This document shows positions 2,231 to 6,441 of a DNA stretch of 6,441 nucleotides, piece by piece. Below the pieces are notes generated by a model. It made no database searches. It had not been told where the DNA came from and worked only from the letters and a program-made list of their open reading frames with translations. The stretch lies in IMG/VR virus record IMGVR_UViG_2690316278_000002; one strand, given 5' to 3'. Source of the DNA: a virus. Lineage: Duplodnaviria > Heunggongvirae > Uroviricota > Caudoviricetes. Positions within the stretch are counted from its first letter, which is position 1, and every line of letters begins with the position of its first letter. Position numbers and translations under genes: made by a program.

Positions 2231-3092
2231 TTACTTCACAACTCCCGGAAAGCTGACATTTGAACGCCAGCTATCCCAGTTAAACGTCACCCACCGACAA
2301 CCGTTCATGGTCATGCGGTCCATAATCCTCTCACCAAGAAGCGTGCTCATTGCGGCATGATTCAGGTTTGTTAACANNNNNNNNNNNNNNNNNNNNNNNN
2401 NNNNNNNNNNNNNNNNNNNNNNNNNNNNNNNNNNNNNNNNNNNNNNNNNNNNNNNNNNNNNNNNNNNNNNNNNNNNNNNNNNNNNNNNNNNNNNNNNNNN
2501 NNNNNNNNNNNNNNNNNNNNNNNNNNNNNNNNNNNNNNNNNNNNNNNNNNNNNNNNNNNNNNNNNNNNNNNNNNNNNNNNNNNNNNNNNNNNNNNNNNNN
2601 NNNNNNNNNNNNNNNNNNNNNNNNNNNNNNNNNNNNNNNNNNNNNNNNNNNNNNNNNNNNNNNNNNNNNNNNNNNNNNNNNNNNNNNNNNNNNNNNNNNN
2701 NNNNNNNNNNNNNNNNNNNNNNNNNNNNNNNNNNNNNNNNNNNNNNNNNNNNNNNNNNNNNNNNNNNNNNNNNNNNNNNNNNNNNNNNNNNNNNNNNNNN
2801 NNNNNNNNNNNNNNNNNNNNNNNNNNNNNNNNNNCGCGTATTTTTGCCCGTCGTTCTGCACCTGATAATTCGCAAACGAGCATTTGCTGTGCAGAGGCTG
2901 GATGCCCGAACGATTCAGGATTTTTTCCACCCGCAACTGGCGATTCTGGCGGTTAATCTCCTCGCTGCGTTTTCGTCCTTCAGCAAGTTGCCATTCCCGC
3001 CACTCCTCCACCGTCCGGTACGGTGGAACCGCCCCCTGTGGTGCAAGTCTGTGAATACGTTCAAGAACCCCGGCTGCCGCAATGTTTTTCAT
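2231..3092 (-). CDS. DnaC-like replicative helicase loader (prophage paralog, YdaV-position); central ATPase region masked; apparent frame discontinuity across the mask
   Basis: N-terminus (3092 down to 2835) MKNIAAAGVLERIHRL...NRSGIQPLHSKCSFANYQVQNDGQKYA matches E. coli DnaC (...NRSGIRPLHQNCSFENYRVECEGQMNA) as I recall it. C-terminus (2376 down to 2231) LTNLNHAAMSTLLGERIMDRMTMNGCRWVTFNWDSWRSNVS matches the DnaC C-terminus (LTNSNMEEMTKLLGERVMDRM...WVIFNWDSYRSRV). The two visible parts are in different reading frames (span 862 nt = 3n+1). The start ATG is 6 bp downstream of the initiator's stop. Confidence 0.75.
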
Positions 3093-3098
3093 GCCACA

Positions 3099-4163
3099 TC
3101 ACCCCCTGAATCCCGGCGGAATTTCGGTATCCGGTTCAGAAATATGATTCACACAACGCTGGTTGTTCGTGCCGCTTACCGGGAGCAACCAGGGGTTTTC
3201 AAAATTCCGGTCCGGCCCAAAAAACGTCGTCGCTCGCTGAACAAATTCCGTTCCCGCTTTCCCGGTCGCCGCCAGGTATCTCGCGTAACGCCTCACACCA
3301 TCCAGCATGGTCTCTGGTGGCACCCCCTCGCGCAATCTGGCCTTCCAGGCACTGAATGCGGATTTCTTCGGGTTTGCCCCGGCACGCAACGGGTATTCCC
3401 GCCAGACCTGTTCGAACACATCCGGATAATCCACTCGTCCCACAGGCTGCCCGGTGTTTTCCGGGGCTACCCGATCGGCTTCCCGCTGAATGGCGGAATC
3501 GGCTTCAGGCTGCTGCAGTTGGAGTGATTGCTCCGGCCTTGCGGTCATCACCTGCTGCACAGCGCCCGAATCGGCTTTCAGCGCATACGCTGAATCGGCT
3601 TCCGGTGTCGAGCCTGCTGGCTGACCAGGATTGACGGTCTGAACATCCCCTGCCTGGTTCGTGGCGTTTTTTACGCCATGGACCATAGTGTTTTGATCTT
3701 CTTTATCTGTATCTTTATCTGTATCTGTCGTGACTCGTCGTGACATGTGCGTGACATTTCGTGACGCGCCGTGACAATCGCCATTTTGTTCCCGCTTTCT
3801 TTCCCTCTCTCGCTGCGCCCTCTTGCGCTCTGCAGGAGATTTTGCGGTTTGCGAAATATTGCCGTTGTCCTCTTTAAGCACCTGGCGTTTTTCCCATCCA
3901 GTGATTAAATCACCATCAAGTACCCGCCCCTGCATCGTCTGCAAAATTGAATCAATTACCTCTTCTGTCACGTCGAGCGCACTTGCCAAATCTTCTGTCG
4001 TGACATCAATGTGACCTCGCGTGACATTTCGTGACGCGCTCACCAGGAGGTGGATATACACTGCCATCACTGTTGCAATTGGCTGCCCTGACACCCTGGC
4101 AATTGTTCGCCACTTAGGGTCATTTGGCATGTCATGCCATAATCTGAGCCAGGCGTTAGCCAT
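3099..4163 (-). CDS. Phage replication initiation protein with DnaT-like C-terminal tail (YdaU-position), containing intragenic iteron-like repeats
   Basis: 354-aa ORF from ATG 4163-4161 with SD-like GAGGTGAGT immediately upstream (the track's first codon at 4169 is GTG). The C-terminus ...NHISEPDTEIPPGFRG resembles the C-terminal tail of E. coli primosomal protein DnaT (...VSEPDSQIPPGFRG, as I recall it). It sits immediately upstream of a DnaC-like gene, as in the chromosomal dnaT-dnaC operon. The protein carries an internal repeat SRNVT...VTT(E/D)D encoded by the GTGAC arrays. Confidence 0.7.
   Translation of the reverse strand: MANAWLRLWHDMPNDPKWRTIARVSGQPIATVMAVYIHLLVSASRNVTRGHIDVTTEDLASALDVTEEVIDSILQTMQGRVLDGDLITGWEKRQVLKEDNGNISQTAKSPAERKRAQRERERKREQNGDCHGASRNVTHMSRRVTTDTDKDTDKEDQNTMVHGVKNATNQAGDVQTVNPGQPAGSTPEADSAYALKADSGAVQQVMTARPEQSLQLQQPEADSAIQREADRVAPENTGQPVGRVDYPDVFEQVWREYPLRAGANPKKSAFSAWKARLREGVPPETMLDGVRRYARYLAATGKAGTEFVQRATTFFGPDRNFENPWLLPVSGTNNQRCVNHISEPDTEIPPGFRG
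3701..3724. repeat. Exact tandem duplication of the 12-mer CTTTATCTGTAT within a T-rich tract next to array A
   Basis: CTTTATCTGTAT at 3701-3712 and again at 3713-3724, followed by a partial CTGT. On the minus strand it encodes the low-complexity peptide DTDKDTDKED. Confidence 0.6.
3730..3775. repeat. Iteron-like array A: five direct GTGAC motifs phased at 10-11 bp
   Basis: GTGAC at 3730, 3740, 3751, 3761 and 3771 (spacings 10, 11, 10, 10). Contains the 19-mer GTGACATTTCGTGACGCGC (3751-3769), which recurs exactly at 4021-4039. Confidence 0.55.
3967..4039. repeat. Iteron-like array B: four direct GTGAC motifs phased at 10-11 bp plus one inverted copy
   Basis: GTGAC at 4000, 4011, 4021 and 4031. 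An inverted GTCAC lies at 3967-3971. TCTTCTGTC is repeated at 3961 and 3991. The 19-mer at 4021-4039 is identical to 3751-3769. Confidence 0.55.
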
Positions 4164-4234
4164 ACTCACCTCTTCTGATACCGAATCTTTTTACTCACGA
4201 GTTGCCGGGAGCGATTCGATATGGCTATTGTCAG

Positions 4235-4920: not shown

Positions 4921-5031
4921 AATCCGCCCTATGTGATGTGTTACCAATGCATAATTAATAGCACTGTTATTTTTAAAAGTAAATAGTGATGCTATTTCAA
5001 AGTGATTAGCAATCTTATTAGAATTGGATGT
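4921..5031. promoter_or_regulatory. Divergent promoter/operator region between the cI-like and Cro-like genes
   Basis: 111-bp AT-rich intergenic spacer between divergent starts (4920 minus, 5032 plus). Two 15-bp operator-like sites: AATAGCACTGTTATT (4957-4971) and the near-perfect palindrome AATAGTGATGCTATT (4982-4996), centres 25 bp apart. Candidate + strand promoter: -35 TTCAAA (4996-5001), 17-bp spacer, -10 TAGAAT (5019-5024), which puts the transcript start at or next to the ATG at 5032 (leaderless, as for lambda PRM). Candidate minus-strand promoter: -35 TTTACT (complement of 4978-4983), 17-bp spacer, -10 TATTAA (complement of 4955-4960). Promoter hexamers were assigned by eye. Confidence 0.5.
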
Positions 5032-5459: not shown

Positions 5460-6441
5460 NNNNNNNNNNNNNNNNNNNNNNNNNNNNNNNNNNNNNNNNN
5501 NNNNNNNNNNNNNNNNNNNNNNNNNNNNNNNNNNNNNNNNNNNNNNNNNNNNNNNNNNNNNNNNNNNNNNNNNNNNNNNNNNNNNNNNNNNNNNNNNNNN
5601 NNNNNNNNNNNNNNNNNNNNNNNNNNNNNNNNNNNNNNNNNNNNNNNNNNNNNNNNNNNNNNNNNNNNNNNNNNNNNNNNNNNNNNNNNNNNNNNNNNNN
5701 NNNNNNNNNNNNNNNNNNNNNNNNNNNNNNNNNNNNNNNNNNNNNNNNNNNNNNNNNNNNNNNNNNNNNNNNNNNNNNNNNNNNNNNNNNNNNNNNNNNN
5801 NNNNNNNNNNNNNNNNNNNNNNNNNNNNNNNNNNNNNNNNNNNNNNNNNNNNNNNNNNNNNNNNNNNNNNNNNNNNNNNNNNNNNNNNNNNNNNNNNNNN
5901 NNNNNNNNNNNNNNNNNNNNNNNNNNNNNNNNNNNNNNNNNNNNNNNNNNNNNNNNNNNNNNNNNNNNNNNNNNNNNNNNNNNNNNNNNNNNNNNNNNNN
6001 NNNNNNNNNNNNNNNNNNNNNNNNNNNNNNNNNNNNNNNNNNNNNNNNNNNNNNNNNNNNNNNNNNNNNNNNNNNNNNNNNNNNNNNNNNNNNNNNNNNN
6101 NNNNNNNNNNNNNNNNNNNNNNNNNNNNNNNNNNNNNNNNNNNNNNNNNNNNNNNNNNNNNNNNNNNNNNNNNNNNNNNNNNNNNNNNNNNNNNNNNNNN
6201 NNNNNNNNNNNNNNNNNNNNNNNNNNNNNNNNNNNNNNNNNNNNNNNNNNNNNNNNNNNNNNNNNNNNNNNNNNNNNNNNNNNNNNNNNNNNNNNNNNNN
6301 NNNNNNNNNNNNNNNNNNNNNNNNNNNNNNNNNNNNNNNNNNNNNNNNNNNNNNNNNNNNNNNNNNNNNNNNNNNNNNNNNNNNNNNNNNNNNNNNNNNN
6401 NNNNNNNATGACGGCAGGGTTCAATCTTTAACTATGCAGCA

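Follow-up and report, generated by a model that had tools for sequence, protein, structure and literature searches.

An AT-rich, length-variable coding repeat as a putative unwinding segment of a probable lambda-type origin within the initiator gene of a Rac/lambdoid Escherichia coli prophage

On the basis of comparative and thermodynamic analyses of a 6,441-nt stretch of phage DNA (referred to below as the window, that is, the whole stretch that was analysed), we propose that the AT-rich tract at positions 3685..3728 has a dual use. Read on the minus strand, it encodes a disordered acidic linker (TTDTDKDTDKEDQNT) of a replication initiator, and the same DNA may form the melt-prone AT-rich segment of an origin located within the initiator gene. 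The probability that we attach to this combined reading is about 0.65. Most likely, the tract acts as an unwinding element, a role that is well supported by both kinds of analysis. The initial annotation of this DNA had raised the possibility of such an element in a lambdoid layout, and the suggestion now finds computational support in the GC minimum, the position of the tract, the GC content of its third codon positions (GC3), the recurrence of the layout and a model of stress-induced duplex opening (SIDD type). The core of the tract, an exact tandem duplication of CTTTATCTGTAT (3701..3724), is one allele of a family-wide ATCTGT/ATCTTT hexamer array and not an isolated event.

The tract and the gene that contains it

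The tract lies in a minus-strand gene of 356 codons (3099..4169), which matches the replication initiation protein family phrog_3729 over its whole length (E 3e-250) and is annotated here as a replication initiator or phage replisome organizer. It shows 97% DNA identity to genes named 'replisome organiser' or 'DNA replication protein O' in the E. coli phages Tritos, Evi and others, and the RefSeq name of its close relatives is 'phage replisome organizer'. Weak PHROG matches pointed to further replisome-organizer families (phrog_4880, E 2e-5; phrog_5968, E 4e-4), and a Pfam scan of the initiator returned no family at E<=0.01, including lambda O/Phage_rep_O and Phage_rep_org_N. Downstream lies a partly N-masked minus-strand gene (2331..3092) for a YdaV-like, DnaC-like helicase loader ATPase (NCBIfam PRK12377, E 1.3e-46; DnaC, E 1.3e-19; phrog_50), presumably the partner of the initiator C-terminal domain, and YdaT-like, Cro-like and CI-like genes are found upstream. 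The locus is the replication module of a Rac/lambdoid E. coli prophage, and near-full-length matches to this module were identified in about 1,650 of 5,426 complete E. coli genomes, including STEC lineages. No Rfam match was found in the window.

The structure of the initiator was modeled using AlphaFold2 with a 17-sequence alignment. Residues 5-97 were modeled with confidence as a helical N-terminal domain, and the model also contained a basic helix (112-128) and a C-terminal domain; pLDDT was approximately 30 for residues 130-244, a long linker segment that is predicted to be disordered. The tract, together with the adjacent repeat array (array A, described below), encodes residues ∼132-161 of the 356 and is thereby contained in this segment (pLDDT<50 throughout residues 130-244). 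Comparison of the model with the PDB by Foldseek gave no significant match, the best being winged-helix regulators, all with E>0.4, and we attribute this to the disorder that dominates the model.

Within the tract, CTTTATCTGTAT occurs twice in perfect tandem (3701-3712 and 3713-3724), and a partial third unit, CTGT, follows directly 3' of both copies (3725-3728), so that the window reads, in order, GTTTTGATCTT CTTTATCTGTAT CTTTATCTGTAT CTGT CGTGAC. Tandem Repeats Finder reported the same region both as a repeat of period 12 (3700-3726, 2.2 copies, 100% matches) and as one of period 6 (TCTGTA; 3700-3728, 4.8 copies). An exact 12+12 tandem did not arise in any of 3000 mononucleotide shuffles of the unmasked window. 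The 38 nt at 3691-3728 comprise 23 T, 6 C, 5 A and 4 G; the plus strand of the tract is T-rich and the coding strand purine-rich (70% purine). On the minus strand, the open reading frame 3099..4169 reads SRRVTTDTDKDTDKEDQNTM over the repeat region and RRVTTDTDKDTDKEDQNTM over the tract. All details of the duplication given in the initial annotation, that is, its position at 3701-3724, its T-rich sequence and its abutment on the array, were reproduced, and the peptide that it had assigned to the repeat (DTDKDTDKED) was correct by translation of the minus-strand frame. A GATC (Dam) site is located at the distal end of the tract (3695..3698), and, of 12 genes that were inspected, 7 have a GATC within or at their AT-rich tract. 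No secondary structure was predicted for the T-rich single strand.

Iterons, base composition and known origins

The tract directly abuts array A (3729..3775), which consists of five CGTGAC cores starting at 3729, 3739, 3750, 3760 and 3770, with spacings of 10, 11, 10 and 10 bp. A second array, B (3967..4035), lies in the part of the gene that encodes a variable loop of the N-terminal domain and contains CGTGAC at 3999, 4020 and 4030, TGTGAC at 4010 and an inverted CGTGAC at 3967-3972. In total, the window contains nine CGTGAC sites, every one of them within 3729-4035; 1.95 would be expected by chance, and this number was reached in none of 200 shuffles. Relatives at 84-87% DNA identity have kept the cores of array A, with altered spacers and an altered encoded peptide. 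In more distant homologues GTAACG or AAGGGGCTT was found at the position of array A, and both array positions of the gene are occupied by arrays in homologues whose protein identity is 46-59%. The repeat is GTAACG in three of five distant homologues (L133, L136 and L137) and is still GTCACG in the other two (L134 and L135), and arrays A and B switch their repeat sequence together. Such a joint change is a signature of initiator-iteron co-evolution, and the CGTGAC arrays are probably iterons bound by the initiator.

Just distal to the AT-rich tract is an inverted repeat (3655..3685) with 13-nt arms and a 5-nt loop, whose predicted DNA fold has a free energy of -10.9 kcal/mol (z -5.65). Its GGCG-A6-CGCC core has been kept in all five distant homologues (L133-L137), and in L010 and L011 the stem is partly broken, as judged by eye from the homologue alignment. 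The inverted repeat scores as terminator-like on the plus strand, but the count of such elements equals the shuffle expectation, and the promoter and terminator scan yielded chance-level matches only.

Analysis of base composition revealed that the GC minimum of the initiator gene coincides with the tract (0.25 over 40 nt; gene nt 446-485, corresponding to window 3685-3724). GC3 was 0.57 in the rest of the gene and 0.07 in the 14 codons of the tract, the latter being the lowest value among the 343 14-codon windows. Because of this difference at third codon positions, the AT-richness of the tract exceeds what its amino acids require. Amplification of a unit that was itself AT-rich might account for part of the low GC3. 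GC3 of the tract was 0.00-0.07 in four of the five distant homologues (L133, L134, L136 and L137), as compared with 0.52-0.61 elsewhere in the gene, although the repeat units are different (GATAAA/GATACA-like). The layout is the same in these four genes, where a purine-rich tract of 17-25% GC comes directly after the last repeat and is succeeded by the GGCG-A6-CGCC inverted repeat; the exception among the five is L135, whose GC minimum lies before the iterons. The module swap represented by L008 and L009, in which the initiators have a C-terminus of the DnaT-like type and a partner resembling lambda P, has left the tract attached to the N-terminal/iteron module. The O157-type module, which shares its C-terminal half with the present initiator, carries a purine-rich and moderately AT-rich (GAACAG)n linker, and the GC minimum of its gene is located elsewhere. 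Base composition, GC3, the recurrent layout and the association with the N-terminal/iteron module all indicate a DNA-level constraint on the tract, which at the same time codes for a disordered linker.

A comparable organization is known from phage lambda, whose ori comprises four iterons and a 39-bp High-AT region inside the O gene (PMC6022878, PMC7466680). In-frame deletions of 12 and 15 bp in this AT-rich region abolish origin function, and the O protein still complements (PMC6022878, PMC7466680). In lambda O, we found the GC minimum (20% GC, 72% purine) directly after iteron 4, with a GC3 of 0.14 versus 0.54. The two loci thus resemble each other in several respects: the origin, putative in the present case, is placed inside the initiator gene in the segment for an inter-domain linker; in the order of transcription, the AT-rich tract comes directly after the last iteron; this tract spans approximately 40 bp at 20-25% GC, with a purine-rich coding strand and GC-poor third codon positions; the encoded linker is rich in D, T, K and E (DTKDTITKEKRKD in lambda and TDTDKDTDKEDQNT here); and an inverted repeat comes after the tract, that at 3655-3685 occupying the place of lambda's palindrome. 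On the other hand, the initiator has no detectable homology to lambda O (no Pfam match and different PHROG families), its putative iterons are 6-7-bp direct cores spaced by 10-11 bp in two arrays ∼260 bp apart, whereas lambda has four 18-bp inverted repeats, and its partner is a DnaC-like ATPase and not lambda P. A further difference is that the AT-rich tract here consists of a polymorphic tandem repeat and is predicted to be somewhat more stable than that of lambda. By analogy, the locus would work like a lambda-type origin, without belonging to the lambda O family by homology.

Similar features could be recognized in other systems. The Bacillus phage SPP1 has an origin, oriL, inside its replisome-organizer gene 38, with AB boxes, to which the organizer binds, beside an AT-rich DUE (PMC5737612). 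The present locus is like SPP1 oriL (gene 38, G38P) in that the probable origin lies within a gene whose relatives are named as replisome organizers and the repeats adjoin an AT-rich segment, and it differs in the absence of a Pfam Phage_rep_org_N match, in host phylum and in repeat sequences. An active origin, oriJ, has been reported for the Rac prophage (PMC3945230); the literature that we searched covers the existence of oriJ, and no base-level map of it was found there. The gene order of K-12 Rac (ydaS-ydaT-ydaU-ydaV) parallels that of the window, with a cro/YdaS-like gene, a YdaT-like gene, the initiator and a DnaC-like YdaV. In K-12 Rac ydaU, AAAGATACAGATAAAGATCT (AATAAAGATACAGATAAAGATCTAAAAA) is the GC minimum and comes after TGTTCAA repeats. 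The two initiator genes thus share a GATACAGATAAAGATC-type cassette as GC minimum after short repeats, as well as the C-terminal IPPGFRG tail of their products, whereas YdaU, a DUF1376-type protein, differs in its unrelated N-terminal domain and in the TGTTCAA repeats themselves. The tract is also reminiscent of the 13-mers of the E. coli oriC DUE and of iteron-plasmid repeats, since short tandem AT-rich repeats flank initiator sites and GATC is present; unlike the oriC 13-mers, it is also coding sequence. The oriC 13-mer GATCTnTTnTTTT had no match in the tract at <=2 mismatches, and no DnaA box beyond chance was detected near the tract. A DnaA-trio reading was rejected, as consecutive 5'-TA[G/A]-3' trinucleotides are absent from both strands.

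Length polymorphism and predicted duplex stability

To characterize the variation of the repeat, we used the first two iterons as an anchor and collected the alleles of 127 loci from E. coli genomes and IMG/VR. The tract before the first CGTGAC contained 3, 4, 5, 6, 7, 9, 11 or 12 xTCTKT hexamers, and a total of 12 alleles could be distinguished, all in frame and differing in steps that are multiples of 6 bp. The most common allele (81 of 127 loci) was ATCTGT ATCTTT ATCTGT ATCTTT ATCTGT. The window allele, TTCTTT ATCTGT ATCTTT ATCTGT ATCTGT, was represented by four loci with full flanks, including the window itself; compared with it, the commonest allele of the relatives has 6 additional bp and a G in the first unit. 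In a spread sample of complete E. coli genomes, this +6-bp allele also predominated, and the majority had five hexamers. The 11-hexamer allele was present in nine complete genomes of E. coli, which for the most part were O145:H28 or other STEC strains. The sole frameshift observed was a 10-bp iteron deletion in L007, outside the tract. More than one allele occurred on each of six flank haplotypes (identity over 250 nt on each side), which indicates that length change recurs on otherwise identical backgrounds. As the hexamers pair into 12-mers, slippage or unequal recombination alters the length in frame. The repeat is therefore a polymorphic minisatellite that codes for a slippage-prone linker, which is directly demonstrated by these data. 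The initial annotation had proposed just such a linker and a count of repeat copies in related prophages; the copy number indeed varies between 3 and 12 hexamers, in frame, among the 127 loci, including the six haplotypes with identical flanks.

A second repeat-mediated length polymorphism was observed in the same disordered linker, 100-200 nt from the tract, where copies of GAATCGGCTT are located at 3496, 3568 and 3592. In some relatives, precisely the interval from one copy to another (24, 72 or 96 nt) is missing, corresponding to deletions of 8, 24 or 32 amino acids. Tolerance of length change thus seems to be a general property of the linker, and length variation alone requires no cis function.

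The initial annotation had also called for a helical-stability (SIDD) calculation. For this purpose we used our own approximate implementation of Benham-type SIDD energetics, with a mean-field treatment of multiple open runs (one probability came out slightly above 1). When the 650-bp origin region was placed in a neutral background of 52% GC (sigma -0.06), its stability minimum fell in the tract, at about window position 3704, making it the least stable duplex of this region. The predicted probability of opening in this background was 0.57 for the window allele and 0.68 for the common allele. The longer constructs, with three and five dodecamers (also counted as 3-5 extra dodecamers), gave 0.92 and 0.98, respectively. 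With the repeat removed or recoded to be GC-rich, the value was 0.06, and lambda ori gave 0.97. Predicted opening thus rose with copy number, from 0.06 to 0.98. In its native context, the unmasked 2.6 kb, the tract came no higher than 6th among 64 bins (P 0.007 at sigma -0.055), the first region to open being the one between cro and cI (4947-5003); in the 9-kb locus of phage Tritos the tract ranked approximately 50th of 226 bins. The lambda AT-rich region, a proven DUE, came no higher than 5th-7th among the 125 bins of its 5-kb native context, and native-context rank was accordingly dropped as a criterion for a DUE.

Alternative readings and proposed function

Three other explanations of the tract were considered. 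First, it might be only a low-complexity coding microsatellite for a disordered linker, the duplex being opened elsewhere or otherwise and the tract having no cis role. This reading agrees with the predicted disorder of the encoded region, with the second length polymorphism at the GAATCGGCTT copies, with the rank of the tract below the top predicted opening site in native context and with the less AT-rich (GAACAG)n linker of the O157-type module. However, it does not account for the near absence of G+C from synonymous sites in independent lineages whose repeat units differ, nor for the constant position of the tract directly after the last iteron. It is also at odds with the coincidence of the tract and the gene's GC minimum in most lineages, among them the unrelated K-12 ydaU and lambda, and, once the tract is removed, nothing else in the 650-bp origin region is predicted to melt easily. 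We therefore consider it rather unlikely that linker coding is the whole explanation.

Second, the tract might mainly be a recombination junction, at which shared low-complexity sequence promotes the shuffling of N-terminal/iteron and C-terminal/loader modules among lambdoid prophages. Homology breakpoints are indeed located at the tract (O157-type genes match only 3099-3694, and lambda-P-partnered genes match only 3706-4169), and similar GATAMAGAT cassettes are present in otherwise unrelated initiators. Nevertheless, domain boundaries are the expected breakpoints of any mosaic gene, and both the depletion of GC3 and the purine strand bias are left unexplained. Since this is an evolutionary consequence and not a molecular function, it is compatible with the origin reading without replacing it, and as the principal role of the tract it seems improbable. 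Third, a phase-variable (contingency) on/off repeat of the initiator or a sequencing or assembly artefact, either of which might be suggested by a short tandem repeat with recurrent length change, is ruled out by the in-frame series of the allele census, in which the length differences among the 12 alleles are without exception multiples of 6 bp, and an artefact also by the presence of the repeat in thousands of independent complete genomes.

Returning to the dual-use reading, we suggest that the N-terminal domain of the initiator would bind the CGTGAC iterons of array A, which are in helical phase, and probably those of array B as well. The nucleoprotein complex formed in this way would act with negative supercoiling to open the adjacent low-stability tract, after which the C-terminal domain may recruit the DnaC-like loader and the host DnaB helicase. 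The same bases would code for the disordered acidic D/T/K linker between the DNA-binding and the loader-binding parts of the protein. Both the unwinding of the tract and an effect of its length on firing are inferred here.

It should be noted, as a counterpoint to the origin reading, that 12-bp deletions in the lambda AT-rich region kill the origin, yet differences of 12 bp in either direction are common in the present family. Many of these prophages may be defective.

A more far-reaching proposal is that the alleles of 3-12 hexamers act as a heritable rheostat of origin firing and of prophage replication and induction efficiency, with a hypermutable coding minisatellite as the unwinding element. 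This idea is speculative, and we hold it to be doubtful. If it were true, slippage would lengthen or shorten both the melt-prone DNA and the initiator linker, and this would apply to the Shiga-toxin-associated E. coli lineages that carry the longest alleles. In the same speculative vein, the initiator or the loader might recognize the conserved GATAMA periodicity in single-stranded form.

No base-level description of the origin of this module was found in the literature that we searched. Our results place the probable origin precisely, with its two iteron arrays, AT-rich tract and inverted repeat. They also lead to the prediction that origin activity scales with repeat number, for which the natural alleles are on hand as a test set. 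The design principle would be the classical one of lambda and SPP1, so that known biology is extended and not overturned; what is new here, modestly, is that the putative DUE is a length-variable coding minisatellite.

Iteron arrays and their variation

Two CGTGAC iteron arrays, array A (3729-3775) and array B (3967-4035), were separated by about 260 bp within the initiator gene (3099-4169, minus strand); array B lies where the folded N-terminal domain has a variable loop. Among homologues, the two arrays changed sequence jointly (GTCACG, GTAACG or AAGGGGCTT), and gain or loss of units was observed in both of them. Such an arrangement is suggestive of looping or of a nucleoprotein complex built on two sites. 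It should be noted that unit loss can affect the iteron arrays too, but out of frame: in the related locus of E. coli FACU 2024 (L007, NZ_CP147009.1), a single 10-bp unit of array A was deleted, which frameshifts the initiator gene, and the gene is annotated as a pseudogene.

Elements at and beyond the AT-rich tract

A GATC (Dam) site was found at 3695-3698, in the distal part of the AT-rich tract (3685-3728). Where the partner is a DnaC-like loader, most homologues had a GATC inside this tract or at its distal end (L133, L134, L136, L137, L138 and L001), and the site was kept although the encoded residues varied (D-Q or D-L). Among the genes compared, the tract's GATC was absent from lambda-P-partnered genes, O157-type genes and lambda. 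Immediately distal to the tract, an inverted repeat occupies 3655-3685, its two 13-nt arms enclosing a 5-nt loop. Its predicted DNA fold was -10.9 kcal/mol (z -5.65), and it received a terminator-like score on the plus strand, antisense to the initiator gene. Its GGCG-A6-CGCC core was retained in distant homologues sharing the C-terminal module of this gene and was partly broken in O157-type genes. Within the unmasked sequence of the window, stress-induced opening was predicted to be strongest in the cro/cI intergenic region (4947-5003; P ~0.9 at sigma -0.055). Runs of N (126-553, 1006-1220, 2377-2834 and 5460-6407) leave several genes partly masked, among them most of the DnaC-like and cI-like genes; wherever analyses required these regions, the 97%-identical locus of phage Tritos was substituted.

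Linker length, C-terminal tail and the Rac counterpart

Three in-frame copies of GAATCGGCTT (3496-3505, 3568-3577 and 3592-3601) encode PEADSA, KADSG and PEADSA on the minus strand. Inter-copy segments of exactly 24, 72 or 96 nt were missing from relatives, whose proteins were shortened between copies by 8 aa (P0002), 24 aa (P0003) or 32 aa (P0004 and P0008). The copies underlie a second repeat-mediated length polymorphism of the disordered linker.

The final 24 residues of the initiator (ending in SEPDTEIPPGFRG; 3099-3170) showed a weak match (E 0.0016) to positions 156-179 of NF002770, at the C-terminal end of primosomal protein DnaT. This tail was conserved among initiators whose partners are DnaC-like loaders, and may therefore be a loader-binding tail. 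Its terminal IPPGFRG is common to ydaU of the E. coli K-12 Rac prophage (L138, 2620-3477), an unrelated DUF1376-type initiator. Like the initiator gene of the window, ydaU carries a GATACAGATAAAGATCT-type cassette, which in ydaU encodes NKDTDKDLK, forms the GC minimum and directly follows TGTTCAA repeats; this arrangement likely marks the position of the Rac origin, oriJ.
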